In this document: positions 1,712 to 35,360 of the stretch, one piece after another
Layout: each line of letters opens with the position of its first letter
Numbering within the stretch: position 1 is the stretch's first letter
From: a virus
Reading direction: 5' to 3' (one strand)
Length of the DNA stretch: 57,812 nt
IMG/VR virus record: IMGVR_UViG_3300002143_000037
Coordinates: 1-57,812 of that record
Translations under genes and position numbers: made by a program
The notes under the pieces: generated by a model
What the model was told of the DNA's origin: nothing
Database searches by the model: none
What the model saw: only the letters and a program-made list of their open reading frames with translations

Positions 1712-1978
1712 ATGGCTACCACTAAGACAGACGCACAGAAGGTTGCAGAACTTCGTAAACAAGCAATGGACAAGAGCTTGCCTCAGCCCGTTCGTGACAT
1801 GGCTGACAAGAAAGCCAATGACATTGAGGCCAAGTCTGTGAAGAAGGCTACAGGTATGGAGCTTGCTAAGGGTGGTGCTGTTGCTAAGAAGTCTCCTAAG
1901 AAGATGATGTATGGTGGTGCTCTGCCTATGATGGCTAAGGGTGGTGCTGCTATGAAGAAGGCTAAGGGGAAGAAGTAA
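1712..1978 (+). CDS. Lys/Ala-rich basic protein with two AKGG motifs (88 aa)
   Basis: ATG 1712 is in frame within the listed ORF and follows AAGAAAGAAAC. 20 of 88 residues are Lys. Motifs ELAKGGAV and MMAKGGAAMKKAKGKK-stop. TAATG overlap with the next gene. Confidence 0.75.
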   Translation: MATTKTDAQKVAELRKQAMDKSLPQPVRDMADKKANDIEAKSVKKATGMELAKGGAVAKKSPKKMMYGGALPMMAKGGAAMKKAKGKK

Positions 1979-2712
1979 TGGCTACACGTAGAACTAGCGG
2001 TCGCTTCGGTGACGAAAAAGGTGTTCAGCGCAACAAAGACAATAGCCCTGATCCTTACGACAAACCAAACCGTTCACCCGGTCAGAGCAATGCCAATCGT
2101 GCTCGTCCTTCATTGAATGAAGATGTTGGTGATTCTCAGCGTCGAGACAATCAACGCATTGCTAGAGGTTTGATGCCAACTGCTGAAGGCGGTGGTGGGC
2201 GCAAGGCACAGCAAGATGCAGGCGGTAGGGCTGTAACACGTACAGGTGCTCGTATTGGTAAAGGTGCTGTTGCTTTTGAACTTGGTTATGCTGCTGGTCG
2301 TGAGGTGGATGAGAATGGCCTTCCTTTCACTGATGGTGTTGGTAAAGGCGTGGGTAAGAAGATTGTTGATAAGACAGGCTTGGGTAAGCTGACCGATGCT
2401 GCTGTTAATATGCGAGACAAGGTTGAGCTTTCTAAAAGTTCTAAAGAGCGCATCAAAGCTGGTGAGCTTGATAAGAAGAGTAATGACGAACGTGTCAACA
2501 AAGAAGACTATCCCACTTACAAGAAAGACACAAAGAGTGCTGCTGCATTTCGTAAAGAGTTCAAGGCTGCTAAAGATAATGGTAAAGACAGCTTCAGCTT
2601 TGAGGGTCGTAAGTACAATACCAAAGGCGAATATGCCAAAGGTGGTATGGTGACCAACCAAGGTGTTGGTGCTTCCATGAAAGCCCATAACGTTTTTGGA
2701 AAGAAGAAGTGA
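1978..2712 (+). CDS. basic low-complexity protein, C-terminal AKGG tail (244 aa)
   Basis: Translationally coupled ORF. The C-terminus is EYAKGGMVTNQGVGASMKAHNVFGKKK. Confidence 0.75.
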   Translation: MATRRTSGRFGDEKGVQRNKDNSPDPYDKPNRSPGQSNANRARPSLNEDVGDSQRRDNQRIARGLMPTAEGGGGRKAQQDAGGRAVTRTGARIGKGAVAFELGYAAGREVDENGLPFTDGVGKGVGKKIVDKTGLGKLTDAAVNMRDKVELSKSSKERIKAGELDKKSNDERVNKEDYPTYKKDTKSAAAFRKEFKAAKDNGKDSFSFEGRKYNTKGEYAKGGMVTNQGVGASMKAHNVFGKKK

Positions 2713-2713
2713 T

Positions 2714-3172
2714 ATGGCAATGAACAAGAACATTGACGACGACACACGCAAACGTGCGCTAGCCTTTGTTGAGAAGAACAAGAAGGGCGCTGACGAGAAG
2801 GAATATCGCAGCGATCCCTACAGCAAGATGACAAAGGCTGAGCGTGACTCTCGTGTTGGTTATCCAGACGACTTCCCTCCTGCGTCTACAGACGATGCCA
2901 CTAAGCGTCTTCCTAAGAACAAAGCTCGTGTTGTTAGCAAGAAAGAGCTTGAAGCTTCTGGCCTCAGCCTGCGTGACTTCCTCAACAAAGAGCGTGGCCT
3001 CACACGCCGCAAAGAGCCGATGAGCAAAGAAGAAGCTAAGAAGCAATTGAAGCTGGGTGAGAAGCCATCAGCCAAAGAAGTTGATGATGCTAAGAAGCAG
3101 CTTGGTTTTGCCAAGGGCGGCTATGTCAACTGCGGCGCTTCTATGCCACCTGCACAGAAGGGTAAGAAATGA
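2714..3172 (+). CDS. basic protein, C-terminal AKGG tail (152 aa)
   Basis: ATG 2714 lies 1 nt after the previous stop. The C-terminus GFAKGGYVNCGASMPPAQKGKK parallels the preceding protein. Confidence 0.75.
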   Translation: MAMNKNIDDDTRKRALAFVEKNKKGADEKEYRSDPYSKMTKAERDSRVGYPDDFPPASTDDATKRLPKNKARVVSKKELEASGLSLRDFLNKERGLTRRKEPMSKEEAKKQLKLGEKPSAKEVDDAKKQLGFAKGGYVNCGASMPPAQKGKK

Positions 3173-3471
3173 AGCCGGGTCTGTACAGCAACATTGCTGC
3201 AAAGCGTGAGCGCATTGCCGAAGGCTCTGGTGAGAAGATGCGTAAGGTGGGTAGCAAAGGTGCTCCTACGGCTGAAGCGTTTAAGCAGGCTGCAAAGACT
3301 GCGAAGATGGCTAAGGGTGGTGATGTAGCCAAACAACAAGCCAAGGTTGCTAAAGTGATGGGTGAGTTCAAAGAAGGCTCTCTGCACAGCGGCAAAGGTG
3401 GTAAGGTGGTGAAGTCGCCTAAGCAGGCTATTGCAATTGCTTTGTCTGAAGCTAAGAAGGCTAAGAAGTGA
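3169..3471 (+). CDS. basic protein with AKGG motif (100 aa)
   Basis: ATGA overlap with the previous gene. It carries KMAKGGDV. The C-terminal VMGEFKEGSLHSGKGGKVVKSPKQAIAIALSEAKK resembles a widespread small bacterial/phage domain of unknown function (from memory). Confidence 0.75.
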   Translation: MKPGLYSNIAAKRERIAEGSGEKMRKVGSKGAPTAEAFKQAAKTAKMAKGGDVAKQQAKVAKVMGEFKEGSLHSGKGGKVVKSPKQAIAIALSEAKKAKK

Positions 3472-3503
3472 TAAACAAAGAACCGAAGGTTAGGAGCATT
3501 GGT

Positions 3504-3851
3504 ATGGTGTTGACGGCTGGTTCTGCCAACACTATCTACACCTGCCCTCCAAACTACATTGCTAAGATGGTGTTGTTGTTTGTTTCCAATCACGATATCA
3601 GCGGTGGCGGTGGCGGTGGCGGCGGTAGCGGTAGTACAAAGAAAGTGACTGTTCAATGGAACGATGTCAGTGCTGGTCAGAGCTATTACATTGTTGGTGG
3701 TTATTCATTAACTGCTACAGCGTTTCTCAAACTTGACGGTAGCTATCTTGTCCTCAACCCCGGTGACACTCTCATTGTTACGCCTGAAGCTGGTAGCGCT
3801 ATGGACACTACAGTCACAGTTGAAGAATACTTTGAACCTGCAATGAGATGA
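3504..3851 (+). CDS. hypothetical protein with internal poly-Gly loop (115 aa)
   Basis: AGGAG lies 8 nt upstream of ATG 3504, which I prefer to the listed GTG at 3468. The SGGGGGGGGSGS run is encoded by a GCGGTG-type repeat at 3601..3634. Confidence 0.65.
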   Translation: MVLTAGSANTIYTCPPNYIAKMVLLFVSNHDISGGGGGGGGSGSTKKVTVQWNDVSAGQSYYIVGGYSLTATAFLKLDGSYLVLNPGDTLIVTPEAGSAMDTTVTVEEYFEPAMR

Positions 3852-3854
3852 TAT

Positions 3855-6136: not shown

Positions 6137-8227
6137 ATGGCACTCATTGATAAACCTTCTAACGATAAGACACTAGCTCTTGATGACTCACCGAAGAGTG
6201 AGGACGACTTTCAAGCTCGTGGAATCATCAGCTTCATTGAAAAGCGCTATACCAAATCGGAAGAGTCTCGTCGCACTGACGAAGATCGTTGGCTCCGTGC
6301 CTATCGAAACTATCGTGGTCTGTATGGCCCTGATGTTAAGTTCACTGAGACAGAGAAGAGCCGTGTATTTGTGAAGGTGACAAAGACTAAGACGCTTGCT
6401 GCGTATGGTCAGATTACCGATGTGTTGTTTTCTAACAACAAGTTTCCTTTGAGCATTGACCCATCTGTATTACCTGAAGGTGTAGCAGAGTCTGTACATT
6501 TCGATCCAAAGAACCCAGACACAGCACCACCATCCATTCCATTCGGTGAAGAAGGCGCTGCCAGCATTGGTAAAGACTTTGACTTGGATACGCTGGAGCA
6601 AATGCTTGGCAGTTTGAAAGAAGAACTGAAGGATGTTCCCGGTCTCAAGATGGGTGCTGGACAGACACCAACGTCTGTGACGTTTAGTCCTGCTATGGTG
6701 GCAGCTAAGAAGATGGAGAAGAAAATCCATGACCAGCTTGACGAGAGCGGTGCAAGTAAACATCTCCGTGCTTCAGCATTTGAGATGGCATTGTTTGGTA
6801 CAGGTGTGATGAAGGGTCCGTTTGCTGTCAACAAAGAATATCCCAACTGGACAGAAGACGGTACATACAAACCAACAATCAAGACAGTACCGGAAGCATC
6901 ACACGTTTCAATCTGGAACTTCTATTGGGATCCTGACGCAAACAATACAGAAGACTGCCAGTATGTTATTGAGCGTCACAAGATGTCGCGTACACAGCTA
7001 CGTGCTTTGAAGCGTCGACCACACTTCCGTAAGAACGTCATTGACCAACTCATTGAACAAGGCGAAACCTACATCAAGAAGTATTGGGAAGATGACTTGC
7101 GTGACTACGCTCCCAACTTTGACGTTGATCGCTTTGAAGTGTTGGAGTATTGGGGTAACGTAGACATTGAGTTGTTGGAAGAGAATGACATCAACATCCC
7201 AGCAGAGTATGCTGACGGTGATGAACTGCAAGCTAACATTTGGTATTGCAACGGCAAAATCATTCGCTTGGTATTGAACCCATTCAAGCCTGCAAAGATT
7301 CCATACTACGCTGTTCCTTATGAACTCAACCCATATAGCTTAGCTGGTGTTGGTATTGCAGAGAACATGGACGACACACAGACGTTGATGAATGGCTTCA
7401 TGCGTATGGCTGTTGACAACGCTGTGTTGTCAGGCAACCTCGTCTTTGAAGTTGATGAGACCAACCTTGTCCCCGGTCAAGACATGTCAGTGTATCCCGG
7501 TAAAGTGTTTCGTCGTCAAGGCGGTGCTCCCGGCCAAAGCTTGTTCGGTACTAAGTTTCCTAACGTGTCTCAAGAGAACCTGCAGTTGTTTGATAAAGCT
7601 CGTCAGCTTGCCGATGAATCGACAGGTATGCCTTCGTTTGCTCACGGCCAAACTGGTGTGAGTGGTGTTGGTCGCACAGCATCTGGCATCTCTATGTTGA
7701 TGAACGCTGCTGGTGGTTCTATTAAGACCGTCATTAAGAACGTTGACGACTACTTGATTAACCCACTTGGTAAAGCATTCTTCAGCTTCAACATGCAGTT
7801 TGATTTTGATCCAGAGATCAGAGGTGACTTGGAAGTGAATGCTCGTGGTACTGAATCGTTGATGGCTACAGAAGTTCGTTCACAACGACTGATGCAGTTC
7901 TTGCAGATTGTTAGCAATCCCGCACTGATGCCATTCGCTAAGATGCCCTACATCATCCGTGAGATTGCTAAGTCTATGGACTTGGATCAGGACAAGGTTA
8001 CTAACAACATGGATGAGGCTGCTCGTCAGGCTGCATTGATGCAGCCTCCTGCCGCCGCTGGTGCTCCACCCGCCGCTGGTGCTCCACCTGTACCGGGAAC
8101 TGGCGTAGCTGACATGACAGGTGGTGGTGCTGGCAACATCGGTGTTGGTGCTGCTCCTGCACCGGGTGAGCAAGGCTTTGCTGGTAACACCGCTGGTCAA
8201 CCACCACAACCTCCACAGGCTGCTTAA
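6137..8227 (+). CDS. portal protein
   Basis: A 696-aa ORF directly after terL, the canonical portal position and size. It has a Pro/Ala/Gly-rich C-terminal tail (PPAAAGAPPAAGAPPVPG...). Confidence 0.75.
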   Translation: MALIDKPSNDKTLALDDSPKSEDDFQARGIISFIEKRYTKSEESRRTDEDRWLRAYRNYRGLYGPDVKFTETEKSRVFVKVTKTKTLAAYGQITDVLFSNNKFPLSIDPSVLPEGVAESVHFDPKNPDTAPPSIPFGEEGAASIGKDFDLDTLEQMLGSLKEELKDVPGLKMGAGQTPTSVTFSPAMVAAKKMEKKIHDQLDESGASKHLRASAFEMALFGTGVMKGPFAVNKEYPNWTEDGTYKPTIKTVPEASHVSIWNFYWDPDANNTEDCQYVIERHKMSRTQLRALKRRPHFRKNVIDQLIEQGETYIKKYWEDDLRDYAPNFDVDRFEVLEYWGNVDIELLEENDINIPAEYADGDELQANIWYCNGKIIRLVLNPFKPAKIPYYAVPYELNPYSLAGVGIAENMDDTQTLMNGFMRMAVDNAVLSGNLVFEVDETNLVPGQDMSVYPGKVFRRQGGAPGQSLFGTKFPNVSQENLQLFDKARQLADESTGMPSFAHGQTGVSGVGRTASGISMLMNAAGGSIKTVIKNVDDYLINPLGKAFFSFNMQFDFDPEIRGDLEVNARGTESLMATEVRSQRLMQFLQIVSNPALMPFAKMPYIIREIAKSMDLDQDKVTNNMDEAARQAALMQPPAAAGAPPAAGAPPVPGTGVADMTGGGAGNIGVGAAPAPGEQGFAGNTAGQPPQPPQAA

Positions 8228-8439
8228 TGGAAAAGGCGTTTCTACCAAAGCTCAAGGGCATGCTTAACAGCCCTCATTTGTGGGATGCCTTCGTCGATAA
8301 GCTTGACTATGACATTGCACAGCAGCAACGCAATCTTGAACAAGCAACAGACCTGCAACAACTGTTTAAGGCACAAGGTGCAATTGCTGCTTTGCGTCAT
8401 TTGAAATATCTCAAAGATGAGATAAACAGTAAGGACTAA
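8227..8439 (+). CDS. hypothetical protein (70 aa)
   Basis: TAATG coupling to portal. Helical and Gln-rich. Confidence 0.55.
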   Translation: MEKAFLPKLKGMLNSPHLWDAFVDKLDYDIAQQQRNLEQATDLQQLFKAQGAIAALRHLKYLKDEINSKD

Positions 8440-8440
8440 C

Positions 8441-9892
8441 ATGGGAATCGCAAGCGCTCTTTTTAAAAAACCACTGGCCTCTTCAATGAAGAAGATGGCT
8501 GGTGAAGTGTCTAGTGATGTCCTACCAAAAGCAGCATCATCAATTGTTGCAGATGTTCCAGTAGAAAAGCTCATCCCTGATAGTATTGTTAATAAACCAA
8601 CACCACAGCAGATTGAAAGAATGGCTGTTCAACCTGATACAGCGCCTATTGATCCGTTCGTTGCTAAGCGAATCGATAGAACTGAAGACTTCGGTGTAGA
8701 GCCAGAACTGCTTGCAAAAGAAAATGAAGATGCATTTCAGGTTCTTGGTGTAACTCCAGAAGTTAAAGACCAGTGGCGAAAAGATAATAAGAGTTCTTTG
8801 CGAAAAGGTTTGCTTCCTGAAATTGAAGACGCAGCACAGAAGCTTTTTGATAACAAGATTGATGCTGATGAGTTTAAAGCTCTGTCTGATGCTAAGCAGC
8901 CAATTGTTCCAATGGACAATGTTCCAGAAGTTCCATCGTTTAATGACATTACAAATGCACTAACCGAAGAACAGGTTAAGAAGGGCATCATTGGTGTCAA
9001 CCTTAAGCTTCCGGCAAACGAAAGAGTTTCATCGCGCCTTGATATTCCGGCATATAACGACTACAACACTTGGGTGGTATCACTCCACGACGGAACTAAG
9101 AAGAGTGGTGCTGCTATTGGTTATGCTAAAACTGCTGTGCTGAAGAACGTCGAGTTTGTTTCTGATTCAAAAGTAGCCCTTGATATTGCTCGACGCAAGC
9201 CACTTGCTAGTGGTAGAAAAATGGGTAAGGCAACAATTGCTAGGATCTTTGGCGACTGGGTTCCTCACGATCCCGATACTGCTAAAGCCTATGCCGAGAA
9301 AGTATTTAAAGAAGAAGGCTGGTCACAGGTTGGTATGAATCCGTACCGTGCTAGTTACTTCTATGATAAGGCAGACGGCATGCCTGTAGTTTCTGCTGAT
9401 GAGGTAGTTCAGATTGGGCCACTTGTTATGGCAAAGAACGTTAAGAAGACAACACCGAAAGATCCAATGTTTAAAGTAAATCCCAAAGATGAAGCTAGTC
9501 CAACCTTTGCTGCTGGTGGTGCTGTAACTCAAACAAACCGATTGTTCGCCGAAGGTGGCGTAATGCAACAGGGTGGCACAGTCGATCCTGTATCTGGCAA
9601 TGAAGTGCCACCCGGTGCTATGCAAGAAGAAGTAAGGGATGATATTGATGCTAAGCTGAGCGAGGGTGAGTTTGTTTTCCCTGCTGATGTTGTGCGATTC
9701 TATGGTTTGGAAAAACTAATGATGATGCGTGACAAAGCCAAGATTGGCTTGCAGAAGATGAACGACATTGGTCAGATGGGTAATGCTGAAGAAGTACCGG
9801 ACGGTGAAGCTTTGTTTGGTGGTGGTGAGGATGAGATGGATGATGAGATGTTCTCGTCTGAGATTGATTCAATCATGAGCGAAGAGGGTTAA
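8441..9892 (+). CDS. virion-module protein (483 aa) with acidic C-terminus
   Basis: Located between portal and scaffold. It contains KPTPQQIERMAVQP (shared with 31788..35360), relaxed motifs FAAGGAV and FAEGGVM, and the tail GGGEDEMDDEMFSSEIDSIMSEEG. Confidence 0.7.
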   Translation: MGIASALFKKPLASSMKKMAGEVSSDVLPKAASSIVADVPVEKLIPDSIVNKPTPQQIERMAVQPDTAPIDPFVAKRIDRTEDFGVEPELLAKENEDAFQVLGVTPEVKDQWRKDNKSSLRKGLLPEIEDAAQKLFDNKIDADEFKALSDAKQPIVPMDNVPEVPSFNDITNALTEEQVKKGIIGVNLKLPANERVSSRLDIPAYNDYNTWVVSLHDGTKKSGAAIGYAKTAVLKNVEFVSDSKVALDIARRKPLASGRKMGKATIARIFGDWVPHDPDTAKAYAEKVFKEEGWSQVGMNPYRASYFYDKADGMPVVSADEVVQIGPLVMAKNVKKTTPKDPMFKVNPKDEASPTFAAGGAVTQTNRLFAEGGVMQQGGTVDPVSGNEVPPGAMQEEVRDDIDAKLSEGEFVFPADVVRFYGLEKLMMMRDKAKIGLQKMNDIGQMGNAEEVPDGEALFGGGEDEMDDEMFSSEIDSIMSEEG

Positions 9893-9895
9893 TGT

Positions 9896-10057: not shown

Positions 10058-10060
10058 TTG

Positions 10061-12019
10061 ATGGCAACAAAAACTGTTTGGATTCAAGATGGCGACAATT
10101 CTCGCTACGAAACAATTGACGTACCTGATGCTGCGCCAGCACCTGCGCCAGCCCAAGTAACAAATGAACAAGTTGCTGCAATTGATCGGCTTGCTAAACA
10201 AATATTAGCGCAAAACATAACAGACAAATGGTCAGGTCAGGGATTTGGTTCGGCTGAAGCCAATGCTAAAGACATGGCAAAGATTCTTGATGGTATTGGC
10301 ATTACTGACATTAGACAGTTTGGACAGTTTGAAACAACTGTAAATAAACAACAAAAAGTTGTACCAGAGTATCGGACAATCGATGTAGGTGATAGTACTC
10401 AGAGCGTTCCTACAGGACGTTATTACATTCCTGCATATTCACAAGTAGGCGATTCTGAGCAACTGACAGGAAAGCAATATGTTGATCCCTCTTCTGTAAA
10501 AACATCAGAGGTCATTGAGGGAGATAATAGTTATACAACATACACAGCCTCAATACCAACAAAAGAGCTTGCTTACGGCAATAAAGAAACAGGAAAAGTC
10601 GTTCCTAACACCTATAGTGAAAGACAGACAGGAAATGCTTGGGGCGGTACTTTTGCTGGAAGTGGTAACACTGGCTACCGAGTGCAGTTTGCACCTGATG
10701 GCACTCCTGTTTTTTACACTACAGGCGCATCAAGCAGTGACCTTGGTGATTTGATGCCCATCATATCTGTTGCTCTGATGGCTACCGGGGCTGGTGCAGG
10801 TTTGGGCGCAGCTTTGATGGGTGGCTCTTCAGTCGCAGCTACAGCACTTGGTTCAGGAATTATCAGTGGTGTTATGGCAGAGGCCACAGGTGGTGACTTT
10901 ATTAAAGGGGCTATAACAGGAGCTGTTGGTGCTGGTGTTGGTGCTTATGCTGGTGATCTTGGCGCTGCTCTCGGTGTAACCAATCCTGATATTGCTAAAG
11001 CGGTTGGTGGCGCAATCATACAGGGCGCTGCTTCTGAGGCAGCAGGTGGTGATTTCATTGATGGAGCTATTGCTGGTGCATTATCCGGATCTGGTCAAAA
11101 GGCAGGAGAGCTATTGGGTCTCACTGGACAAGTCGCTTCTACCGTTGGAACCTCTATTGTTAAAGGTGTTGTTGCTGAAGTTCAAGGTAAAGACGTAACT
11201 GACGCAATGATTGCTGGTGCAGTGTCTGGTGCTCTTAGCTATAAGACTCCTGAAACAACTGTGCAAACTGCAGAAGAGATGGACAAGACTTTCCAAGAAG
11301 ATATGGCAAAGCTTGGTATTACCTCTACAGACTTAAACATTGGTCCTAAAACAGAAGACGTTCTTGCTTCAAGCTTTCAAGAAGACATGACCAATCTTGG
11401 TATTGTTTCTACCGAGGCTCCACCGCCTTCTGAGTATCAGTTCACTAAAGACTTTGGTACAGGTACAGACTACTCTTTGACAACAGGTGTGACCTTCCCG
11501 AAAGAGGGTATCAATGTTGACGAAGTTAAAGATGCTGGAGCAACCGTTGGTGAATCCCCAGTTGATTACAGCTTAAATGTAAACGCTCCTTTTGATGGTC
11601 TGCAAATGCCAACATCACCAAACCTTGATGGTATGGGTGGCGGTCAGGGTCTTACTGTTAAGACACCAGATGGTGTGTTGTCTGAAGAAGGTGTTACCAA
11701 AACAGGTACTGCCTCTGACTTAGGCGATCCAGACTCTTTCATTAACAAACCAGCCCCTGATGTTCCAGAAGATAGTCTTGATTGGAAAGCCGGATTGAAG
11801 ACAGCAATGGGTCTTGTTGGTGGCGCAACTGCTGGTTTAGCTGCTACAAAATCTACACGTACTCCTTCTACACCTGTGAACCTAAACTATGGTGACATCT
11901 ACAAAGATGCACCAATCAAAGGCTTTGCTATGCGTAAAGGCGAAGACGGTAAATACACACCCTATATTGGTGATAAGGCACAGCTTGCTAAAGGTGGCTT
12001 AGCATCTCGTCGTAAATAA
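10061..12019 (+). CDS. Gly/Ala-rich glycine-zipper protein ending in AKGGLASRRK (candidate internal/ejection protein)
   Basis: ATG at 10061 (the listed start is TTG 10058). The central region of about 200 aa has GxxxG/AxxxG repeats and duplicated E(A)xGGDFI(K/D)GAI(T/A)GA. The C-terminus is QLAKGGLASRRK. Confidence 0.75.
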   Translation: MATKTVWIQDGDNSRYETIDVPDAAPAPAPAQVTNEQVAAIDRLAKQILAQNITDKWSGQGFGSAEANAKDMAKILDGIGITDIRQFGQFETTVNKQQKVVPEYRTIDVGDSTQSVPTGRYYIPAYSQVGDSEQLTGKQYVDPSSVKTSEVIEGDNSYTTYTASIPTKELAYGNKETGKVVPNTYSERQTGNAWGGTFAGSGNTGYRVQFAPDGTPVFYTTGASSSDLGDLMPIISVALMATGAGAGLGAALMGGSSVAATALGSGIISGVMAEATGGDFIKGAITGAVGAGVGAYAGDLGAALGVTNPDIAKAVGGAIIQGAASEAAGGDFIDGAIAGALSGSGQKAGELLGLTGQVASTVGTSIVKGVVAEVQGKDVTDAMIAGAVSGALSYKTPETTVQTAEEMDKTFQEDMAKLGITSTDLNIGPKTEDVLASSFQEDMTNLGIVSTEAPPPSEYQFTKDFGTGTDYSLTTGVTFPKEGINVDEVKDAGATVGESPVDYSLNVNAPFDGLQMPTSPNLDGMGGGQGLTVKTPDGVLSEEGVTKTGTASDLGDPDSFINKPAPDVPEDSLDWKAGLKTAMGLVGGATAGLAATKSTRTPSTPVNLNYGDIYKDAPIKGFAMRKGEDGKYTPYIGDKAQLAKGGLASRRK

Positions 12020-13687: not shown

Positions 13688-13814
13688 TTGATCTAGCCTA
13701 TACGAATATCCTAATAGCTAGGGGATATTCTTATACACCTAGAAGAGACAGCCCTGTGGACTATGTCAGCGTATGTTTTATATGTATGCCAATATATCTA
13801 TAGGAGATTTTAAA

Positions 13815-25762: not shown

Positions 25763-28700
25763 ATGGATAAGAGCTTTACATCAAAACAAAAAGAGATTGT
25801 TGCACGTAAGATGGGTTATGACGGTCCTATGCAGGGCTTCGACACCTTCCTTGCTTCGTCGCCTTCTGAGGCTCAGAAGTATAGCGCCATTACTTCTAAG
25901 TTCGTAGAGCGTATGGCTAAGGGTGGTGTTGTTTCTAAGAAGAAGAACATGGCTGTTGGTGGTGTTGTAACCGCAACAACTCCCATTGCACCGTTAGCTG
26001 GTGGTATTCCTGAAACAAGTGTTACACCAACAATTGCGTCTGCTCCTGTCCTTACTGCCGCTACAACAACATTATCAACTGATGAGTTGGCAAAGGCTCA
26101 ATCGGCTGGTGAAACAACACAGGCCACTGGAACAACTGTAAACACGACAGAGACGGTTGCCGCACCCACCGCAGTCAAGACAACAAACGCCACTACACAG
26201 GCTACACAGCCTGCTCTTACAGCAGCACAGGCGGGGCAAGAAGCTGCTACAGGTGTTGTCGATCCACGATCACAAGTAACAGCACAGCAAGGAACTGTAT
26301 CAGATCAAGCTCAGGCTGCGGTAGCAACTGCTCCTGATGCTTCTACTATTAAGGCTCCTGATGCGTTGAAGACTACATCAGATCAAATAGCTAATGCCGC
26401 TACTGTCGCTGATGTTGGTGGTCCTACTAAAGCTACAGCACAAGTAACAGACAAACAGTTTATTGCTAAAGCTGCACAGCTTGGTGTAACACCTCAAGCT
26501 CTTGCTGCTACAGGCTATACACTTGGTGCGGCTAATGCTGCTGAAATTGAAAGAACAATTGTTGAGCAGGCAGCTAAAGCTGGTTCTGCTGAACAGGCTG
26601 TTGCTGGTCAAGCTGGTCCGGCTGACCAAATTAAAGGTGCTACATTTGATGGCACTGCACCACAAGCAACTGCTGCTACAGACTATCAGTTGGGTACAGC
26701 ACAGGCTGCTCAAATGGGCAAGACAACTGTTGAACAGGGTGCTAAAGCTGGCACTGCTGAACAGGCTGCTGCTGCCCAAGGTGCTGGTCCTGCAGATGTT
26801 AAAGCTGCTACGTTCACAGGCACTACACCGCAGGCCGTTGCTGCTTCTCAGTATGCCTTAAGCGCCACTCAGTCTGCTGAAGCCATTACAACTGCTGTAC
26901 AAGCAGCAGCTAAAGCTGGTGTCATTCCTCAAGCAATTGCTGCACAAACCGCAGCACAGTCTAGCGCTATTGCCCAACAACGTGTTGCAACACAACAAGA
27001 GTTGGTTGATATTGCTCGTCAAAACCTGCAGCTTACAGAGCCTGTTCAGGCCATTGCTGCAACAATGGAAAAGCTCAATAGTGCTGCTGTAGCATCAGCG
27101 CAGCAAGGAAGCTTTAGTCAGGCTCTGGCAACTGCACAGACTGGTAGTGTTGAAGCTGCTGCCACTGTTGCTGGTCAGATGGAAAAGCTGATGCAGCAGT
27201 TCAATGACGGTACACCTGCATGGGCTGCTGGTGCTTTGCGTCAAGCTAATGCAGCAATGGCTGCTCGTGGTCTTGGTAATAGTAGCATGGCAGGTGCTGC
27301 CATTGTGCAAGCAACGATGGAAGCGGCAGTGCCTATTGCGGCTGCTGATGCTCAGACATTTGCACAGATGGGTTTGACCAACCTGAACAATCGTCAACAA
27401 GTTTCGTTGGCTAATGCTGCAGCTATGCAAAACCTTGAGTTGGCAAACCTCAGTGCTCGTCAACAAACTGTGTTGCAGAACAGCGCTAATGCTTTTGCTT
27501 TGCAGGGTCAGAACCTTTCTAACCAACAGTCTGTTGTGCTTGCTAACGCTCAGCTTAAAGCTGCGATGCAAGAGAAGAACTTGGATGTTAAGACACAGGT
27601 TGCTTTAACCAATGCTGCTCGTTATGCTGAAGTGAACAACATCAACTTGAGCAATGCACAGCAAGCAGCAATGCAACGTTCTGCTGAGAATGCACAGTTT
27701 GATCTTGCGAACTTGTCTAACACTCAGCAAACTGCTTTGTCTAATTTGCAGGTGAGAGCAGCCATCACTGGTCAAGAACTCAACAACGAGCAACAGGTTG
27801 CTATGTTGCAGAGCACTCAAGCTTTTGCTGCTATGCAACAAACTGCTACAAACAAACAACAAGCGTTTGTTCAAGACGCACAAGCTGATGCTGCCCTCAA
27901 AGGTCAAGTGTTATCTAATCAGCAACAAACTGCTTTGTTCAATGCATCATCTGTGCTTGAAGAACGCAAGATCAATCTTAGCAATGAGCAACAAACATTG
28001 TTGTTCAACAGTGCTAACAAGCTACAAGTTGACATTGCAAACCTGTCCAACACACAGCAAACAGCATTGGCTAACTTGCAAGTTAGGGCTGCGCTGCAAG
28101 GCCAAGAGTTGTCTAATGATCAACAAGTTGCAATGCTGCAAAGCACACAGAACTTTGAAGCTGCAAACTTCAATGCTACAACCAAGCAACAATCTTTCCT
28201 TGCATCGTTCAATGCTGATGCTGCTCTCAAAGGTCAAGTGCTGTCTAACCAGCAACAAACTCAATTGTTTAATGTGTCTTCTGTTTTGGAAGAGCGTAAG
28301 ATTGAGTTGAACAATGAACAGCAAGCTCTCCTTACCAACAGCGCTAATAAGATGCAGATTGATGTAGCAAATCTTTCAGCTACACAACAAACTGCTTTGG
28401 CTAACTTACAAGTGAGGGCAACACTTCAGGGTCAAGAGCTTACTAACGAGCAACAGATGGCTGTGTTGCAAAGCACACAGAACTTTGAAGCTGCTGGTAT
28501 TGATGCGTCTGCTCAGCAGCAGGCGTTCATCTCTACGTTTAATGCTGACGCTGCTCTCAAAGGTCAAGTGTTGTCTAACCAACAGCAGACATCATTGTTC
28601 AATGTTTCGTCTGCCTTGCAAGAGCGTGGCCTTCAGTTCAACGCCGAGCAACAAACAAACCTGTTTAATACAACCAGTGCGTTGCAGATTGAAACAACTA

Positions 28701-29683
28701 ACCTGTCTAACAAGCAACAGACAGCTTTGGCAAATGCACAGATCGATGCAGCGCTGAAAGGTCAAGAGCTTAACAACAAGCAACAAGTGAACATCACTAA
28801 TGCTGCCCGTGTTGCTGAAGTGGCTAATGTCAACTTCACAGCAGAACAGCAAACAGCCTTGGCGAATGCTCAGTTTATTCAACAGATTAACTTGGCAGAC
28901 CTGAGCAATGAACAAGCTACAACACTAGCTAATGCAGCCACCTTTGCTTCGATGGACATGGCAAACCTCAATGCTCGTCAACAAACTGCTGTACAGAATG
29001 CTCAGTCTTTCTTGGCTACAGACATGAAGAACTTGGACAACAAGCAACAGATGGCTGTACTGAAGAGTCAACAAGTTGCTCAGTCTATTTTGTCTGATGC
29101 TTCTGCGGCCAATGCTGCTTCATTGACTAATGCCACAAATGCAATTGATGTTGAGAAGATCAATGCTACATTGTCTATGACAGCTAACCAATTCAATGCT
29201 GCTGAAAAGAATAAAGTAGAGTTGGCTAATATGGTTGCTGGTAATGAACTTGCAAAGTTTAATGCTCAGGCTGATAATCAACGTGCAGAGTTTAACTCTA
29301 ACATGGCAACACAGATTAACGTAGCCAATGCTAAAATCTTGGCTGATGTTTCTACAGCTAACACCGCTGCGATCAACGCTACCAATGCTGTCAACGCTAA
29401 GACTTATACAGACCTCTCCGCTGCCAATTATGCACAGGTGTCACAGACCTATCGTGATTTGCTTGAGATGTCTTGGAAGACTGGTGAGAGTGAGAAAGAT
29501 AGAGTGATGGAGATTGCTAAAGCTACTATGACTTCTAACGCCTCTATTACTGCTGCAGAAAAAACAGCAACAGCAGAGGGTTATAGCGCCATAGGTTCTG
29601 CTGCCCTTACTGCGCTTGGTAGTGATCAGGCATGGACTCTGTTGGGTAAGGGCATCACTGCTGTTGGTAAACTAATCCCGTAA
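25763..29683 (+). CDS. giant Q/N/A-rich repeat protein (1306 aa), candidate internal/ejection protein
   Basis: One uninterrupted ORF. N-terminal RMAKGGVVSKKK. A long array of ~22-aa NLSNxQQxAL-type repeats includes 330-bp tandem DNA repeats. Confidence 0.8.
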   Translation: MDKSFTSKQKEIVARKMGYDGPMQGFDTFLASSPSEAQKYSAITSKFVERMAKGGVVSKKKNMAVGGVVTATTPIAPLAGGIPETSVTPTIASAPVLTAATTTLSTDELAKAQSAGETTQATGTTVNTTETVAAPTAVKTTNATTQATQPALTAAQAGQEAATGVVDPRSQVTAQQGTVSDQAQAAVATAPDASTIKAPDALKTTSDQIANAATVADVGGPTKATAQVTDKQFIAKAAQLGVTPQALAATGYTLGAANAAEIERTIVEQAAKAGSAEQAVAGQAGPADQIKGATFDGTAPQATAATDYQLGTAQAAQMGKTTVEQGAKAGTAEQAAAAQGAGPADVKAATFTGTTPQAVAASQYALSATQSAEAITTAVQAAAKAGVIPQAIAAQTAAQSSAIAQQRVATQQELVDIARQNLQLTEPVQAIAATMEKLNSAAVASAQQGSFSQALATAQTGSVEAAATVAGQMEKLMQQFNDGTPAWAAGALRQANAAMAARGLGNSSMAGAAIVQATMEAAVPIAAADAQTFAQMGLTNLNNRQQVSLANAAAMQNLELANLSARQQTVLQNSANAFALQGQNLSNQQSVVLANAQLKAAMQEKNLDVKTQVALTNAARYAEVNNINLSNAQQAAMQRSAENAQFDLANLSNTQQTALSNLQVRAAITGQELNNEQQVAMLQSTQAFAAMQQTATNKQQAFVQDAQADAALKGQVLSNQQQTALFNASSVLEERKINLSNEQQTLLFNSANKLQVDIANLSNTQQTALANLQVRAALQGQELSNDQQVAMLQSTQNFEAANFNATTKQQSFLASFNADAALKGQVLSNQQQTQLFNVSSVLEERKIELNNEQQALLTNSANKMQIDVANLSATQQTALANLQVRATLQGQELTNEQQMAVLQSTQNFEAAGIDASAQQQAFISTFNADAALKGQVLSNQQQTSLFNVSSALQERGLQFNAEQQTNLFNTTSALQIETTNLSNKQQTALANAQIDAALKGQELNNKQQVNITNAARVAEVANVNFTAEQQTALANAQFIQQINLADLSNEQATTLANAATFASMDMANLNARQQTAVQNAQSFLATDMKNLDNKQQMAVLKSQQVAQSILSDASAANAASLTNATNAIDVEKINATLSMTANQFNAAEKNKVELANMVAGNELAKFNAQADNQRAEFNSNMATQINVANAKILADVSTANTAAINATNAVNAKTYTDLSAANYAQVSQTYRDLLEMSWKTGESEKDRVMEIAKATMTSNASITAAEKTATAEGYSAIGSAALTALGSDQAWTLLGKGITAVGKLIP
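27707..28873 (+). repeat. About 3.5 in-frame tandem copies of a 330-bp (110-aa) unit
   Basis: GCTGA(T/C)GCTGC(C/T)CTCAAAGGTCAAGTG restarts at 27884, 28214 and 28544. A partial copy begins at about 27707. The last copy is divergent. Confidence 0.85.
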
Positions 29684-29700: not shown

Positions 29701-29910
29701 ATGCAACACATTCGTTCCTACGCTGATAAGATTGAAGCTATCATTGCTTCACGTACAGCTACTAAAGAAACAAAGAAGCAGTCTAAGGGACTATTGGCTC
29801 CGTCTAAAGGCGCTGACGCATCCAAAGAACGTACACAACTGGAAATGATTGCCGACATTGTGCAAGGTATTCGTGAAGCTAAAGAGGAAATCTTAAATGC
29901 TAGAAAATGA
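29701..29910 (+). CDS. hypothetical protein (69 aa)
   Basis: AAAGAAAGA upstream. It overlaps the next gene by 14 nt. Confidence 0.55.
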   Translation: MQHIRSYADKIEAIIASRTATKETKKQSKGLLAPSKGADASKERTQLEMIADIVQGIREAKEEILNARK

Positions 29911-30400
29911 AAGCAAACTTGGTGACGTATTGTCTACAGTACCGCCCGGTATTTCTTGGACAGCCCCGTCAAAAGGACGACCTTGGATGAATCAACCCAA
30001 GGTTGTTGACGTATCTAATGTTGCTCAGGGCTACATCAATAGTCTTGGTCAGGCTGAAGCGGCCAACGACATCTTGGATGCGCTGGAGAGTAAGATGCCA
30101 TTGGCAACAATTGCTGAAGCATTCATGCTCACTGCTGTCAATAAAGGTAGACACACCCTTGATGCTGGCATCTTGGTTATGCCTGTCATCATTGAGTTGT
30201 TGCAGTCTATTGCTGATCTGAATAAGATTAAAACTGTGAAGTACACTGAAGACTTGGAGAAGGGCACTACTGTTCCTCCCCGTGTGCTTCGACAGTTTAT
30301 GGAACAAGCAAAGAACAATACTGTTGAAGAACCAGTTGTTGAAGAAGCTGCTGTAGAGCCTATGGGTTTGATGGCACGTAAGAATAAAGAGGTGATGTAA
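29897..30400 (+). CDS. hypothetical virion-module protein (167 aa)
   Basis: Packed between the giant genes. ATGTAATG coupling to the next gene. Confidence 0.6.
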   Translation: MLENESKLGDVLSTVPPGISWTAPSKGRPWMNQPKVVDVSNVAQGYINSLGQAEAANDILDALESKMPLATIAEAFMLTAVNKGRHTLDAGILVMPVIIELLQSIADLNKIKTVKYTEDLEKGTTVPPRVLRQFMEQAKNNTVEEPVVEEAAVEPMGLMARKNKEVM

Positions 30401-31787: not shown

Positions 31788-34700
31788 ATGGCAACATTTA
31801 ATTTTGAAGAAGACAAGACAACACCATCGTTCAACTTTGAAGAGAAGCCAAATACTTTTAACTTTGAAGAAGAGTCAACACAGGCTTTAAAACCTACACC
31901 ACAGCAAATCGAACGCATTGCATCACAACCTGTACCAAGCGTCACAGCCCCCATCACTGGTGAGGGTGGTGCTGCATTCGGTATGGTTCCTAAAGCTGGC
32001 GGCAAAGCTCGTCCTGTTGAAGCTAAGAAGCCTATTGAAATTGCTACAGGCAAAGACTTCACAGGTTTGGATACAGCTATCGAGAAGCTAACACCTAAGT
32101 CACAACCAAGCGTCACTGCTCCTATTGAGGGTGAGGGTGGTGCTGCATTCGGTATGGTTCCTAAGCAGAAGTTTGGTGGTCGCAATATTGGCTTGACACC
32201 AGAGGTGGCTGCACAGTCTCCAGAGATTGTTCAGTTTGCCACAGACTATTTCAAATCAAGTCGTCCTAACAAACCAATCCCTAAAGACCCTGTGAAGTTG
32301 ATGACAGAGTTTCGTTCATCGTTCAACAAAGACACACTTGATGAAGTGAGAGACTTGACTAGGTTGTTGAATGCATCACCACAACAAAAAGAGATGGAGA
32401 TTAAGGCTCGTGATGTTGCCACTAAGATGGGTGGTGATGTTATGGAGACAGTTGCTAATGTTGCAACAGACCCGTTTACATACGTTGGTGCTGGTGCAGG
32501 CTGGGCATACAAACAAGCAGCATTGCGTACAACACAATCGTTGGCACGCACACAGCTTAAAACTGCTGGTGTCACCGCGCTCACTGAAGGTGTAGTTGCT
32601 GGCGGTACAAACATTGTGCAACAGAAACAAGATGTACAACTTGCTGTGCGTGATGAAGTGAGCTACCTAGAGACAGCAGTTGTTGCTGGTCTTAGCATGG
32701 CCGTTGAAGGCGCTGTTGCTGCGAAGACCGTTGCCAGTGGTGGTAAGCGTACAGCAGAGCGCATTGATGATTTAAGAGCTACAGCAAAGCCTACAGCATC
32801 TGACAAAGCCACTGAAGATTTCAAAGCTAAGTTTGCTGAGAAAGAAAAGCAAGTTTTGGCTCCATTGTTTGAGTCGTCTACAGAGCGTCAAGCTGCACGT
32901 GAAGCTACGTTTGATACAGTGTCACCACCTACAGATGCTATGCAGTCTGTGCTGAAGAAGCCTATTGTCGATGACATCTTTAAGGTGGCTAAGCAACTCT
33001 TCATAGACAACCCAGACCTGCGTCCAAACCTTGAAGAAGTCAGGACAGTACAGGGTATTGTTGATGCATTGAACGTGGCAGACGAAGATGTCATTCAGCA
33101 GGCCGCATCACGTGCTGGTGTTAAACCTGCAGACTTCCTTGAGATGTTTAAAGTGCAGGCTTCAGAGGCTGGTGCATTCTTGCAACAAGCTAAGTCCACT
33201 GCTGACATGCTGCGTAAGATGACCAATGGTGATCCTCAGTTGGAGGATGCATTTAAACGCATGTTGAATGCTGGTGCTGGTACAGAATACTTGTCAGGTA
33301 AGATATTGGGTGGCATCAAGACCACTACAGGCGCTTCAGTTGGTGCATCCACTGCTGGCCTTAGCACTGCTGTCATGAACGCTATTGGTTTGACAGGTAC
33401 GTTGGGTATTCAAGTTGCTGGTGATGTCATGGAAGCAACGATTAAGTCTGCTGGTCGTATGGTCAATGACTTGCGTGGTGGTGGCGCTCCTATCAATTCT
33501 ACACGTGTGCAAGAAGAGATTGGTACTATCTTTGCTGATGGTGGCTTTGTGTTGTCTAAGTTGATGGATGCTGGTTACACCAAAGAGTTGGCTGATATGG
33601 CGTTGAAGAACAACCCACGTCTTAACAACCTCATTACAAACGTTGGTGCTGAAGTTGAGACACAAGGTGGTAGCCCAGTCAATGATGTGATACGTACCCT
33701 TAACATCTTTAACCGTGCAGTTGATGGTGTTGTACGTGGTCCAATCTTTGTACAGAGTGTGAAGAACCGCATGAAAGATGTTGGTCTTGACTTTGAAGAC
33801 TTCATAGCTAATGACAAGCCCGTGCCAACATCGCTGCTCAAAGCTGCCGCTGAAGACACAATGAAGATGACGTTCTCTTATTCGTTCAAAAACACTGGTG
33901 AAAAGAGTATTGAAGGTTTGTCTGAAGACTTAGCATTTAAAACACTACAGACAATCAACAGTAATGCTGGTGCTGGTGTCATTAAAGACTTTGTGGCTCC
34001 GTTTATTCGCTTCCAACTTAATGCTGTGCGATACACCTATCGTATGACACCCTTCAGTGGTGTTGGTGGTATTCAGGAAATCAATAAAGCACTTGAATTA
34101 TTTGCTAGAGGTAAGACGTTGGAGGCTGAAGGTGTTGCATATGATGCCAAGCGTAAAGTGCTAGACAGTGCTGTTGGTACTGCTGCTATTGTTGGTGCTA
34201 TTGCATTCCGCGAAGATAATTCTGATGTTGCTTTCTACCAATACAAAGATGAAGACGGTAACGTTAAAGACGGTAGCACTTTGTTCCCATACGTGAACAT
34301 TATGGCATTGGCTGAAGCATCTTTGGTGATGAAGGACATCGGCAAAGAACTCTGGTACACCACAACAATGTCACCAGAAGAACGTGCTACAGAAGCTACG
34401 AAGATTAAAGAACAAGCCGATGCTCTGCCTGATAACGATCCACAGAAGCAAAGCCTCACTAACCAATATGAGTTGCTGCAACTGGGGCGTGTGCGTAACT
34501 TTGAAGGCGGTAAGTTTGCTGAAATCATTGCAGGTATGGGCCGATCTGCTGGCGTGCAGAAGTCTGTGTTTAATACTCTTGCTGAAACAGTAGAGGGTGG
34601 TATCACTGAGAGCATGGAGAAGAAGGGTGGTCAAGTTGTTGGTGATTTCATCAGCCGCTTTGATAACGTATTGAGTCCAATCTATGACGCTGTCAACTTC

Positions 34701-35360
34701 ATGCGTGATGACATGCGTGTGGTAGATGCCAAAGCCTCTACAGCATTGGCTGGTCAGGTGTCACCGGGTGTTGAAGCTGCAGTGGCTACAGTGGTTGCAC
34801 CTATACCGGGCGCTCGTGACCTGTTACAGAGCCGTCCAAGCCTGTTCCAAGCGACAGAGCAGCAAACCCCTGCGGTGGTCAGGCAAGTCACTGGATCACG
34901 CCCTACACCACCCACAACGGCTATTGAAAAAGAACTGACACGGTTGAACATTCAGCCCTATAGTGTTGTGAAGACAACAGGCAACAGAGACTTGGACAAC
35001 ATTCGCATTGAACTGGCTGCACCAGAGTTTAGAGGTGCGGTGTCTGAGTTGTTGGCTAGTCCAGACTACAAAGCTAAGTCTGCTAATGAACAACAAGTGG
35101 CAATCAAAAGCACCATGAATAAAATATTGTCTGCTTACAAAACAGATGCACAAGAATTGTTCTTGGAAAAGTTTGGCCAGTCTGCTATCAATGCGTTGTA
35201 TGAGAAAGCACCTAACAAGGCTGCACAGGAAGATGCATTCGTTCGTGCATTCAAGCGTAAGCCAACATCTAATGCTGACAAGTTTGCCATCATCGAAGGT
35301 GAGTTTAATGATGTCGGTGTAGTTGGTAAAGCTAAAGGTGGACTAGCAAGTCGTCGGTAG
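31788..35360 (+). CDS. giant protein (1190 aa) ending in AKGGLASRR, candidate internal/ejection protein
   Basis: The N-terminus has FNFEE x3, KPTPQQIERIASQP and a duplicated SVTAPI.GEGGAAFGMVPK (34-nt identical DNA at 31959 and 32130). The C-terminus is GKAKGGLASRR. Last gene of the + arm. Confidence 0.8.
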   Translation: MATFNFEEDKTTPSFNFEEKPNTFNFEEESTQALKPTPQQIERIASQPVPSVTAPITGEGGAAFGMVPKAGGKARPVEAKKPIEIATGKDFTGLDTAIEKLTPKSQPSVTAPIEGEGGAAFGMVPKQKFGGRNIGLTPEVAAQSPEIVQFATDYFKSSRPNKPIPKDPVKLMTEFRSSFNKDTLDEVRDLTRLLNASPQQKEMEIKARDVATKMGGDVMETVANVATDPFTYVGAGAGWAYKQAALRTTQSLARTQLKTAGVTALTEGVVAGGTNIVQQKQDVQLAVRDEVSYLETAVVAGLSMAVEGAVAAKTVASGGKRTAERIDDLRATAKPTASDKATEDFKAKFAEKEKQVLAPLFESSTERQAAREATFDTVSPPTDAMQSVLKKPIVDDIFKVAKQLFIDNPDLRPNLEEVRTVQGIVDALNVADEDVIQQAASRAGVKPADFLEMFKVQASEAGAFLQQAKSTADMLRKMTNGDPQLEDAFKRMLNAGAGTEYLSGKILGGIKTTTGASVGASTAGLSTAVMNAIGLTGTLGIQVAGDVMEATIKSAGRMVNDLRGGGAPINSTRVQEEIGTIFADGGFVLSKLMDAGYTKELADMALKNNPRLNNLITNVGAEVETQGGSPVNDVIRTLNIFNRAVDGVVRGPIFVQSVKNRMKDVGLDFEDFIANDKPVPTSLLKAAAEDTMKMTFSYSFKNTGEKSIEGLSEDLAFKTLQTINSNAGAGVIKDFVAPFIRFQLNAVRYTYRMTPFSGVGGIQEINKALELFARGKTLEAEGVAYDAKRKVLDSAVGTAAIVGAIAFREDNSDVAFYQYKDEDGNVKDGSTLFPYVNIMALAEASLVMKDIGKELWYTTTMSPEERATEATKIKEQADALPDNDPQKQSLTNQYELLQLGRVRNFEGGKFAEIIAGMGRSAGVQKSVFNTLAETVEGGITESMEKKGGQVVGDFISRFDNVLSPIYDAVNFMRDDMRVVDAKASTALAGQVSPGVEAAVATVVAPIPGARDLLQSRPSLFQATEQQTPAVVRQVTGSRPTPPTTAIEKELTRLNIQPYSVVKTTGNRDLDNIRIELAAPEFRGAVSELLASPDYKAKSANEQQVAIKSTMNKILSAYKTDAQELFLEKFGQSAINALYEKAPNKAAQEDAFVRAFKRKPTSNADKFAIIEGEFNDVGVVGKAKGGLASRR

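Follow-up and report, generated by a model that had tools for sequence, protein, structure and literature searches.

A short Gly-Gly peptide motif recurs on unrelated late proteins of a freshwater HMO-2011-type podovirus and its relatives and may be a tag for the head interior

The stretch of DNA analysed here (IMG/VR record IMGVR_UViG_3300002143_000037, 57,812 nucleotides in full, hereafter the window) carries a tetrapeptide, AKGG, that recurs on several of its late proteins. A six-frame scan of the window found exactly eight copies in seven proteins, all of them long open reading frames (ORFs) on the + strand, with the Ala codon of the tetrapeptide starting at 1865, 1934, 2635, 3110, 3310, 11987, 25916 and 35331; none was found in any other frame or in the minus arm. 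The scan thus agrees with the original prediction, which had placed eight copies in + arm proteins and none in the minus arm, and the contexts, coordinates and distances to stop codons listed in that prediction are as it gave them. All seven carriers are encoded on the late/structural strand (Table 1).

Comparison of terminase, portal and coat places the window as a freshwater HMO-2011-type podovirus, and its coat is P22-type. The closest record is MW202701, whose source is a freshwater spring, followed by Puniceispirillum phage HMO-2011 and the Roseobacter CRP phages, with Sinorhizobium phiM6 more distant. The + arm opens with small basic proteins and runs through the small and large terminase subunits (TerS and TerL), the portal, a 70-amino-acid (aa) protein (8227-8439) and a split post-portal protein to a scaffold-like protein, an HNH endonuclease, the coat (13773-14885), an SU10-type adaptor (17198-17926) and the nozzle; it closes with tail fibre, holin, M15 endolysin and a terminal block of five genes, whose products measure 1306, 69, 167, 460 and 1190 aa. 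This block lies where podoviruses keep internal or ejection proteins, and the 1190-aa protein at its end may be regarded, by position, as an analogue of a T7 gp16-type internal protein. A search of related loci returned no relatives of the 460-aa product. Replication, nucleotide metabolism and an integrase occupy the minus arm. The carriers sit in head and portal gene neighbourhoods and include proteins of the polyvalent type, and SPKK-like spacers are present in them.

Table 1. Motif carriers and other features of the window discussed in the text.
Positions	Strand	Protein or feature	Motif copies and other sequence elements
1712..1978	+	88 aa, polycationic (23% Lys), low-complexity; no Pfam, PHROG or NCBIfam match	LAKGGAV (1862-1882), MMYGGAL (1904-1924), MAKGGAA (1931-1951)
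1978..2712	+	244-aa basic protein	YAKGGMV (2632-2652), then GVGASMKAHNVFGKKK-stop; GASM...GKK tail (2653-2712)
2714..3172	+	152-aa basic protein	FAKGGYV (3107-3127), then NCGASMPPAQKGKK-stop; GASM...GKK tail (3128-3172)
3169..3471	+	100-aa basic protein; N-terminal phrog_16028 part, C-terminal DUF6496 domain (3337-3468)	MAKGGDV (3307-3327), between the two parts
3468-3851		beta-rich 127-aa protein just upstream of TerS	eight-glycine run (GGGGGGGGSGS)
6137..8227	+	portal; phrog_332 and phrog_1216	without motif; 0 AKGG in 83 homologues
8065-8227		C-terminal end of portal	low-complexity tail
8441..9892	+	post-portal protein, 483 aa; folded L5_gp82-like domain, residues about 80-350	in disordered linker: FAAGGAV (9506-9526), FAEGGVM (9545-9565), MQQGGTV (9563-9583); after linker: conserved DPVSGNEVPPG...LSEGEFVFPADVVR module
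9038-9470		L5_gp82-like domain, residues about 200-343	invariant residues given in text
9896-10057		53-aa ORF, same frame as its neighbours
10061..12019	+	652 aa; Gly/Ala-rich glycine-zipper-like middle	C-terminus LAKGGLASRRK-stop (11984-12016); second tail motif 11993-12016
12144-13016		scaffold-like protein	no motif at C-terminus
13127-13687		Cys-rich 186-aa ORF, HNH-type endonuclease-like
25763..29683	+	1306 aa, T/A/Q-rich; first 70 aa or so a conserved three-helix module	module ends in tandem MAKGGVV (25913-25933) and MAVGGVV (25949-25969)
29897..30400	+	167 aa, terminal gene block	GLMARK (30365-30382) five residues before stop, in GLMARKNKEVM-stop
31788..35360	+	1190 aa, last + arm protein	end KAKGGLASRR-stop (35328-35357); second tail motif 35337-35357
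37057-40779 and 50430-51533	minus	PhoH, class I ribonucleotide reductase (small and large chains), tyrosine integrase
		representative peptides	motif LAKGGLASRRK, MAKGGVVSKKKNMAVGGVV; tail GLMARKNKEVM

The number of copies far exceeds what composition would provide. In a gene set of hand-curated ORF choices (35 in the + arm, 40 in the minus arm), 0.59 copies are expected in the + arm (11,136 aa) and 0.15 in the minus arm. The shuffling test proposed with the original prediction gave, on shuffling within proteins, a mean of 0.57 copies and a maximum of five, and none of 2000 shuffles equalled the eight observed. AKGG is also the tetrapeptide found in the largest number of window proteins (seven). 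In 16 of 300 shuffled proteomes, some tetrapeptide or other reached at least seven proteins; judged as a search across all tetrapeptides, the signal from the window alone is only borderline. The flanking residues had been described as hydrophobic on both sides, and this holds for seven of the eight copies on each side, but one copy is preceded by a Lys (at 35328) and another is followed by an Asp (at 3322). The looser copies reported earlier (FAAGGAV, FAEGGVM, MMYGGAL and MAVGGVV) are all present. As a definition of the motif, however, AKGG turned out to be too narrow: the copies are genuine, but the Lys is replaceable (FAEGG, LADGG, YAAGG), and the conserved core is better written as hydrophobic-[A/x]-x-G-G-hydrophobic-[V/A/I/M].

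An element at the level of DNA was also considered, with regard to the identical 16-mer ATGGCTAAGGGTGGTG that had been noticed at 1931, 3307 and 25913 and is indeed found at all three positions. Its codons are the commonest in this genome (GCT 53%, AAG 57%, GGT 61%), and its identity reflects codon preference. Among relatives, motif codons follow background usage and vary synonymously across 147 instances. We thus rejected a DNA-level element and conclude, because the codons vary as the background does, that selection acts on the peptide and not on the DNA.

Conservation was assessed in 80 IMG/VR loci around TerL homologues (71-95% identity), with AKGG counted in ORFs of at least 60 aa. Lack of the motif from homologues in related phages had been named beforehand as an outcome that would count against it; instead it is widely kept, with 180 copies in + strand ORFs vs none in minus-strand ORFs. 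Among 163 unique instances, the preceding residue is M, L, Y or F in 145 (M74 L31 Y21 F19), the first residue after the tetrapeptide is A49 M36 L22 V12 F12, and position +5 is V103 A28 I11 with Lys-rich sequence next, giving the consensus [MLYF]-A-K-G-G-[AMLVF]-V-K-K. Sixty percent of 189 instances lie within 25 aa of the C-terminus. Both this conservation of the flanks in relatives and the within-protein shuffles oppose a compositional artefact, which we rejected.

Carriers differ in how consistently they retain the motif. AKGG is present in 37 of 39 homologues of 1712-1978, in 16 of 18 of 2714-3172 (whose tail, ...KGG[MY][VA]NCGASVPP, is kept in relatives) and in all six of 10061-12019. Homologues of 1978-2712 have it in 7 of 11 cases and a relaxed copy in 9 of 11, and those of 8441-9892 have the strict form in 36 of 64 and a relaxed form in 63 of 64. 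Only 8 of 52 homologues of 3169-3471 have AKGG, and on this carrier the motif appears to be optional. The DUF6496 domain of that protein, for which no mention was found in the literature searched, is fused with the motif in unrelated phage lineages as well (L165 8846-9289; L100). Among homologues of TerL, portal, scaffold-like protein, coat, adaptor, nozzle and tail proteins, AKGG was found in none. HMO-2011 gp49 counts among the motif proteins of that phage, HMO-2011 gp67 has MAYGG...YAAGGMV near its C-terminus, and gp68 of the same phage, Lys-rich like 1978..2712 and encoded in the corresponding region (a likeness by region and composition only), ends FNRGGMVKKRKK. On the 1190-aa protein the tail motif is confined to the freshwater clade, namely the window, MW202701 (NKGGLATQ...) and locus L085 (LAKGGLATRR, on an orthologue of 1724 aa), and is not found on the orthologues of HMO-2011, CRP-1 and phiM6. 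Since the motif is gained and lost on orthologues and occurs on non-homologous carriers, it is a short linear motif rather than a product of whole-protein homology, as the original prediction had it; the segments that bear it are disordered in AlphaFold2 (AF2) models.

The post-portal family, with at least 4,649 homologues and with 2,868 representative clusters of its C-terminal module at 50% identity, gives the closest view of what is held constant. All 56 aligned members share F356, G359 and G360 (F-x-x-G-G), and the K position varies (FAAGG, FAEGG, LADGG, FALGG, FAKGG); second and third copies follow, leading into a DPVSGNxVPxG...LSEGEFVxPADVVR module. Long members end in [WYF]AKGG[FL]V[ST]KK, a run of 8-14 mostly basic residues and K(G)LASR(K)-stop. 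A motif copy lies no more than 45 aa from the C-terminus in 73 of 143 diverse representatives of the family, and relaxed copies in the representatives number 521 vs 108 after shuffling. These data bear on whether KGG with its basic flank could be a nucleic-acid-binding element, a groove-binding unit of the RGG, SPKK or AT-hook type with which the small proteins would condense and neutralise packaged DNA and the large proteins would be anchored to the genome by their tails. The small carriers (13-23% Lys, net charge +13 to +19), the conserved Lys-rich flanks, the SPKK-like spacers and RGG-like companions in other loci (RGMGAATRGGG and ALRGYG) are all what one would expect of such an element. 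The F-x-x-G-G core of the post-portal family, however, is invariant even in an acidic context with the Lys replaced (FAAGG, FAEGG, LADGG), which argues for protein-protein rather than DNA contact, and groove binding would not lead one to expect the conserved hydrophobic residues at -1, +4 and +5, so that we regard nucleic-acid binding as improbable.

Structural modelling separates the motif from the folded part of the post-portal protein. In an AF2 model built from the 56-sequence alignment, the predicted local distance difference test score (pLDDT) is mostly >90 over residues 80-350 and <50 over the motif region, residues 358-379. The L5_gp82-like domain has invariant R199, D201, Y205, W211, S214 and H216, together with K263, T265, R268, N300 and K310; a Foldseek search with its model returned no PDB fold match at E<1, and the domain could represent an enzyme or a binding module of polyvalent proteins that is so far uncharacterised. 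Its fold matches in BFVD are large uncultured tailed-phage proteins (E 1e-17 to 1e-32) that are named for their other domains (ART-PolyVal, Zeta toxin, LT_GEWL, tail lysozyme, PcfJ-like). By gene position and domain sharing, 8441-12019 behaves as a polyvalent protein, being portal-adjacent and having these matches and a homologue in locus L096 that carries a Zeta toxin domain, and polyvalent proteins have been predicted to be head-packaged and injected (Iyer et al. 2017, PMC5512222). The window carrier resembles polyvalent or MuF-type effectors in fold match and in a gene adjacent to the portal, as for MuF and SPP1 gp7. Unlike in that system, where the head anchors are domains such as MuF or portal fusions (PMC5512222), no MuF domain was detected here, and a Gly-Gly peptide motif is not described in that paper, in whose text the word glycine occurs 0 times.

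Whereas MW202701 and many relatives encode the post-portal protein in one uninterrupted ORF, the window has three same-frame ORFs in its place, with one TAA stop between each, which could be a genuine split, a case of stop-codon read-through or a recent nonsense change.

Adenovirus protease sites, (M/I/L)XGG↓X, occur in core-protein precursors, including very basic DNA-condensing ones, and the window motif is like them in being a hydrophobic residue followed by Gly-Gly that recurs on several proteins, very basic ones included. One could thus envision a processing site, cut at or after the Gly-Gly by a host-encoded or unrecognised phage protease, which would trim propeptides, separate polyvalent domains and cut the small basic proteins into DNA-condensing peptides. 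A hydrophobic residue before Gly-Gly recalls clan-CE and deubiquitinase (DUB)-type sites in general, and among the carriers are very basic small proteins not unlike adenovirus pVII and pX; some copies occupy linkers between the domains of polyvalent-type proteins, which are often proposed to be processed (PMC5512222), and others lie near termini, where cutting would release short peptides. However, the register is unlike that of adenain, off by one residue: the hydrophobic residue falls at P5 and P4 is Ala in all eight window copies, with only MMYGGAL fitting M, I or L at P4. Conservation is as strong on the prime side, where V occupies +5 in 103 of 163 instances, as on the non-prime side, and tandem arrays of five to seven copies would be unusual for cleavage sites. 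P22-type coats, moreover, mature without a protease. Pfam scans (E<=0.01) detected no protease family, clan-CE or other, in any protein of either arm, which is consistent with the earlier remark that no prohead protease is recognisable; the cognate cysteine protease of an adenain-like system is likewise lacking from these scans and from the PDB comparison of the L5_gp82-like domain. That this domain is a hidden protease was rejected, the AF2 model being confident yet unmatched in the PDB at E<1. Docking is preferred over cleavage because both sides of the Gly-Gly are conserved, tandem copies are common, no Pfam protease was found and the L5_gp82-like domain has no PDB match; a processing site thus seems rather improbable.

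The N-terminal module of the 1306-aa protein offers a second family in which the motif can be followed. Its consensus is FTxKQKEIVARKMGYDGPMQGFDxFLxSSP...ERMAKGGxVKxYAxGGVV, and M51, A52, G54, G55 and G67 are invariant in 29 module sequences. The module is also found in HMO-2011 gp25 and MW202701 and lies internally in CRP-1 gp35; in many relatives it makes up a whole protein of about 110 aa, encoded immediately after holin and M15 endolysin, and elsewhere it is fused to varied C-terminal parts. A tblastn search of isolate phages with the module returned only two records. The counterpart of the whole 1306-aa protein in relatives is a set of three genes, with products of 109, 132 and 630 aa (L085 6266-8879), and other fusion states occur in MW202701, HMO-2011 and CRP-1. 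AF2 predicts three helices, with the motif at the end of helix 3 and disorder beyond.

The original prediction had noted that two giant proteins share an AKGGLASRR end. Both tails are there, but AKGGLASRR proved to be a merger of two motifs, the second being a C-terminal G-L-[MA]-[AS]-R-[RK] that occurs three times in the window vs 0.24 expected, at the ends of 10061-12019, 29897-30400 and 31788-35360. Among 120 homologues of the 167-aa protein, 108 have GLM[AS][RK]K four to eight residues from the C-terminus; HMO-2011 gp24 ends GLMARRK and CRP-1 gp33 ends GGLMSRRT. From these sites and their conservation in homologues, three presumed-internal proteins share a conserved C-terminal tail. The scaffold-like protein has no motif at its C-terminus, and hence gives no hint of a likeness between scaffold and cargo. 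A further shared tail, the GASM...GKK described earlier for 1978..2712 and 2714..3172, was found as described. It is one of a larger group of companion mini-motifs that small basic phage proteins carry, among them NCGASVPP..KGKK, RGMGAA[TV]RGGG, PRGVGAALRGYG and a C-terminal DG[IV]A[TR][KR]GKT[KR]G[RK]MV (loci L088, L090, L095-L097, L113, L115 and L120).

Beyond the HMO-2011 group, collections were scanned with a degenerate DNA pattern encoding MAKGGxVKK. In IMG/VR there were at least 120 matching stretches vs about one expected, and in 596 gigabases (Gb) of bacterial and archaeal genomes 25 matches vs about eight expected, these expectations being rough calculations that assume a size of about 90 Gb for IMG/VR. 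Among the loci listed (at least 120), 32 of 120 have no protein in common with the window. Three annotated loci represent a second podovirus lineage, with a phrog_38 TerL, a Mu gpT-like coat, an SU10-type adaptor and a portal that, like that of the window, matches phrog_1216; its motif proteins are encoded in the interval from TerL to portal, directly downstream of the portal or directly upstream of the adaptor. At locus L096, a 1180-aa Zeta-toxin/L5_gp82 polyvalent protein adjoins the portal and has MAEGGPVKKPKGFADGGSA as an internal tandem pair and MKRGGSV near its end. Many of the viral matches among those listed are small, extremely basic, disordered-looking proteins, and some are tandem arrays with a period of 10-12 residues, up to seven copies in 99 aa at locus L101.

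This layout of stickers and spacers, with its tandem arrays, 10-12-aa period and K/A/P spacers, would suit a homotypic interaction, in which Gly-rich kinked beta segments, also rich in aromatic or Met residues, let the motifs bind each other and multivalent small proteins co-condense with tagged large ones into an internal body, no dedicated receptor being needed. Proteins with one or two copies would then be clients, and the disorder of the motif in AF2 models is as expected. However, AF2 leaves tandem copies unpaired, and proteins of such high positive charge would tend not to self-associate except with DNA or acidic partners at hand. We consider homotypic binding quite improbable.

Most of the 25 prokaryote matches are spurious short ORFs or N-terminal MAKGG, and we therefore rejected a cellular short linear motif recognised by a host factor. 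A related alternative is that the motif has its role after ejection and not in assembly, in the envelope or cytoplasm of the host, where its partner could be a host factor of the periplasm, membrane or cytoplasm. The carriers do include presumed ejection proteins, one protein with a glycine-zipper, membrane-like segment and polyvalent effector-type proteins. Nevertheless, the motif is essentially absent from cellular proteomes, and its presence in freshwater and marine phages, including isolates from Puniceispirillum and Rhodobacteraceae, makes a single host partner unlikely; a post-ejection role is thus the remotest of the explanations that we weighed. We conclude that the motif is conserved, selected at the protein level and phage-specific, and, to judge from sequence, that it recurs on unrelated late proteins of this phage and thousands of relatives.

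Several other features of the window deserve mention in their own right. The HNH-type ORF lies between the scaffold-like and coat genes, matches an MW202701 protein at 41356-41829 and is syntenic with the 'PacI-like HNH' ORF of that record; because it is kept in only about 20 of the related loci that span the region, it is probably a mobile homing endonuclease. The beta-rich protein upstream of TerS has homologues in 44 related loci and no family match. In place of a helical barrel, the last 55 or so residues of the portal form a Pro/Ala/Gly-rich tail. In the minus arm, the class I ribonucleotide reductase is unlike the annotated reductase of MW202701, HMO-2011 and CRP-1, which is single-chain or B12-dependent, and the tyrosine integrase suggests a temperate lifestyle.

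We found no prior description of the motif in the literature searched, and the Hardies podovirus papers do not mention it. Known families were rejected, with no Pfam, PHROG or NCBIfam match over the motif. No carrier matches the Pfam KGG repeat (PF10685) at E<=0.01; ten carriers gave no NCBIfam match at E<=1 to GlyGly-CTERM or C-terminal sorting signals, and no hydrophobic helix follows the Gly-Gly. Double-glycine leaders do not fit either: the motif is not in N-terminal leaders, and Pfam scans of the window found no C39 or ABC transporter family. PDB sequence searches with five queries returned nothing relevant.

In function, the motif would most resemble the T4 capsid targeting sequence (CTS), the cargo-loading peptides of encapsulins and the docking peptides of N4-type ejection proteins. 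The T4 CTS (IPI-IPIII) is an N-terminal peptide of roughly ten residues on unrelated proteins that directs them into the prohead; it binds the scaffolding core, is removed at L-x-E by the gp21 prohead protease and is portable to foreign cargo, and some of its cargo proteins are basic, remain with the DNA and are injected. The window motif is similarly short and found on otherwise unrelated proteins, some of them basic. It differs in being mostly C-terminal or internal (one of eight window copies is near an N-terminus), often tandem and unrelated in sequence, in a phage with a P22-type coat and, by the Pfam scans of both arms, no protease family for its removal. Encapsulin cargo-loading peptides are mostly C-terminal, alternate Gly with small hydrophobic residues, have a basic end and are sometimes repeated; they occur on unrelated cargo and bind the inner face of an HK97-fold shell, in encapsulins that have neither portal nor DNA. 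Short length, C-terminal position and unrelated cargo are common to both, but the sequence is not (about GSLxIGSLK there, hydrophobic-AKGG-hydrophobic-V-KK here), and the window motif occurs with two different coat families, so that coat binding would be putative here. In N4, the gp52 N-terminus occupies the adaptor lumen and a gp51 hairpin lies beside the portal, both 12-fold and both leaving on ejection (PMC13434306); these are short terminal segments of internal proteins that are invisible in their other parts. The likeness is that window carriers are positional analogues of ejection proteins, and an SU10-type adaptor is present in both motif-bearing lineages. The N4 peptides, however, have no sequence similarity to the motif and are not shared between different proteins.

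We suggest that the motif is a docking or incorporation tag for the head interior, a reading to which we would give a probability of about 0.4 and which is favoured because the motif is conserved on both flanks of the Gly-Gly, disordered, portable, often tandem, mostly terminal, phage-restricted and on carriers of head-interior type. Under such circumstances, a peptide disordered on its own would use the Gly-Gly turn to gather the flanking hydrophobic residues into a small knob, which would enter a pocket on a phage-encoded receptor that is present while the procapsid assembles; the Lys/Arg-rich flank would strengthen binding through its charge, either to an acidic surface or, at a later stage, to DNA. 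The portal/adaptor region would be the most likely receptor, with scaffold or inner coat surface as alternatives; we lean this way because the two lineages have two coat families but related portals and adaptors, and N4-like termini are docked there. One or two copies would tether large cargo, such as the post-portal polyvalent-type protein and the presumed ejection proteins, and the small polycationic proteins with many copies would bind multivalently and stay with the DNA as a charge-neutralising filler or internal matrix. The motif and the G-L-[AM]-[SA]-R-[RK] tail would thus mark proteins bound for the head interior. We infer all three of packaging of the carriers, receptor binding and the choice of receptor.

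Several points weigh against a docking tag. Virion proteomics or structure for any HMO-2011-type phage was not found in the literature searched, and packaging of the carriers, especially of the four small proteins upstream of TerS, is presumed. This analysis identified no receptor. Nucleic-acid binding would account equally well for the strongly basic flanks and the RGG-like companion motifs. The motif is not obligatory for this head type, because phiM6 shares the coat (about 57% identity) and portal yet is essentially without it. TerL or portal lies within 5 kb of a motif ORF in 41 of the 120 loci listed (mean available flank about 6.3 kb), only a modest enrichment over the roughly 20% estimated for a random gene.

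A broader reading, tentative and on balance unlikely, is that abundant aquatic podoviruses (HMO-2011-type and at least one other lineage) load their heads by a general, portable peptide code. This code would have two parts, hydrophobic-AKGG-hydrophobic-V-KK and the G-L-A-S-R-R C-terminal tail. If so, the polycationic disordered proteins would be an internal matrix, with singly tagged polyvalent effectors and ejection proteins as its clients, and the system would parallel, in phages, encapsulin cargo-loading peptides or the CsoS2-type repeat scaffolds of carboxysomes, without a maturation protease.

HMO-2011-type phages are reportedly prevalent in marine viromes, and how podoviruses with P22-type heads choose the proteins of the capsid interior is poorly understood. 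Were the motif a cleavage site rather than a docking tag, there would have to be a protease that has escaped recognition, in heads whose maturation is thought not to need one. If it is a docking tag, this conserved seven-residue peptide, common to ejection-type proteins, polyvalent effectors and polycationic filler proteins, would provide a testable handle on the selection of head-interior proteins, make it possible to predict from sequence which effectors uncultured phages inject and supply a small tag for loading foreign cargo into phage heads.

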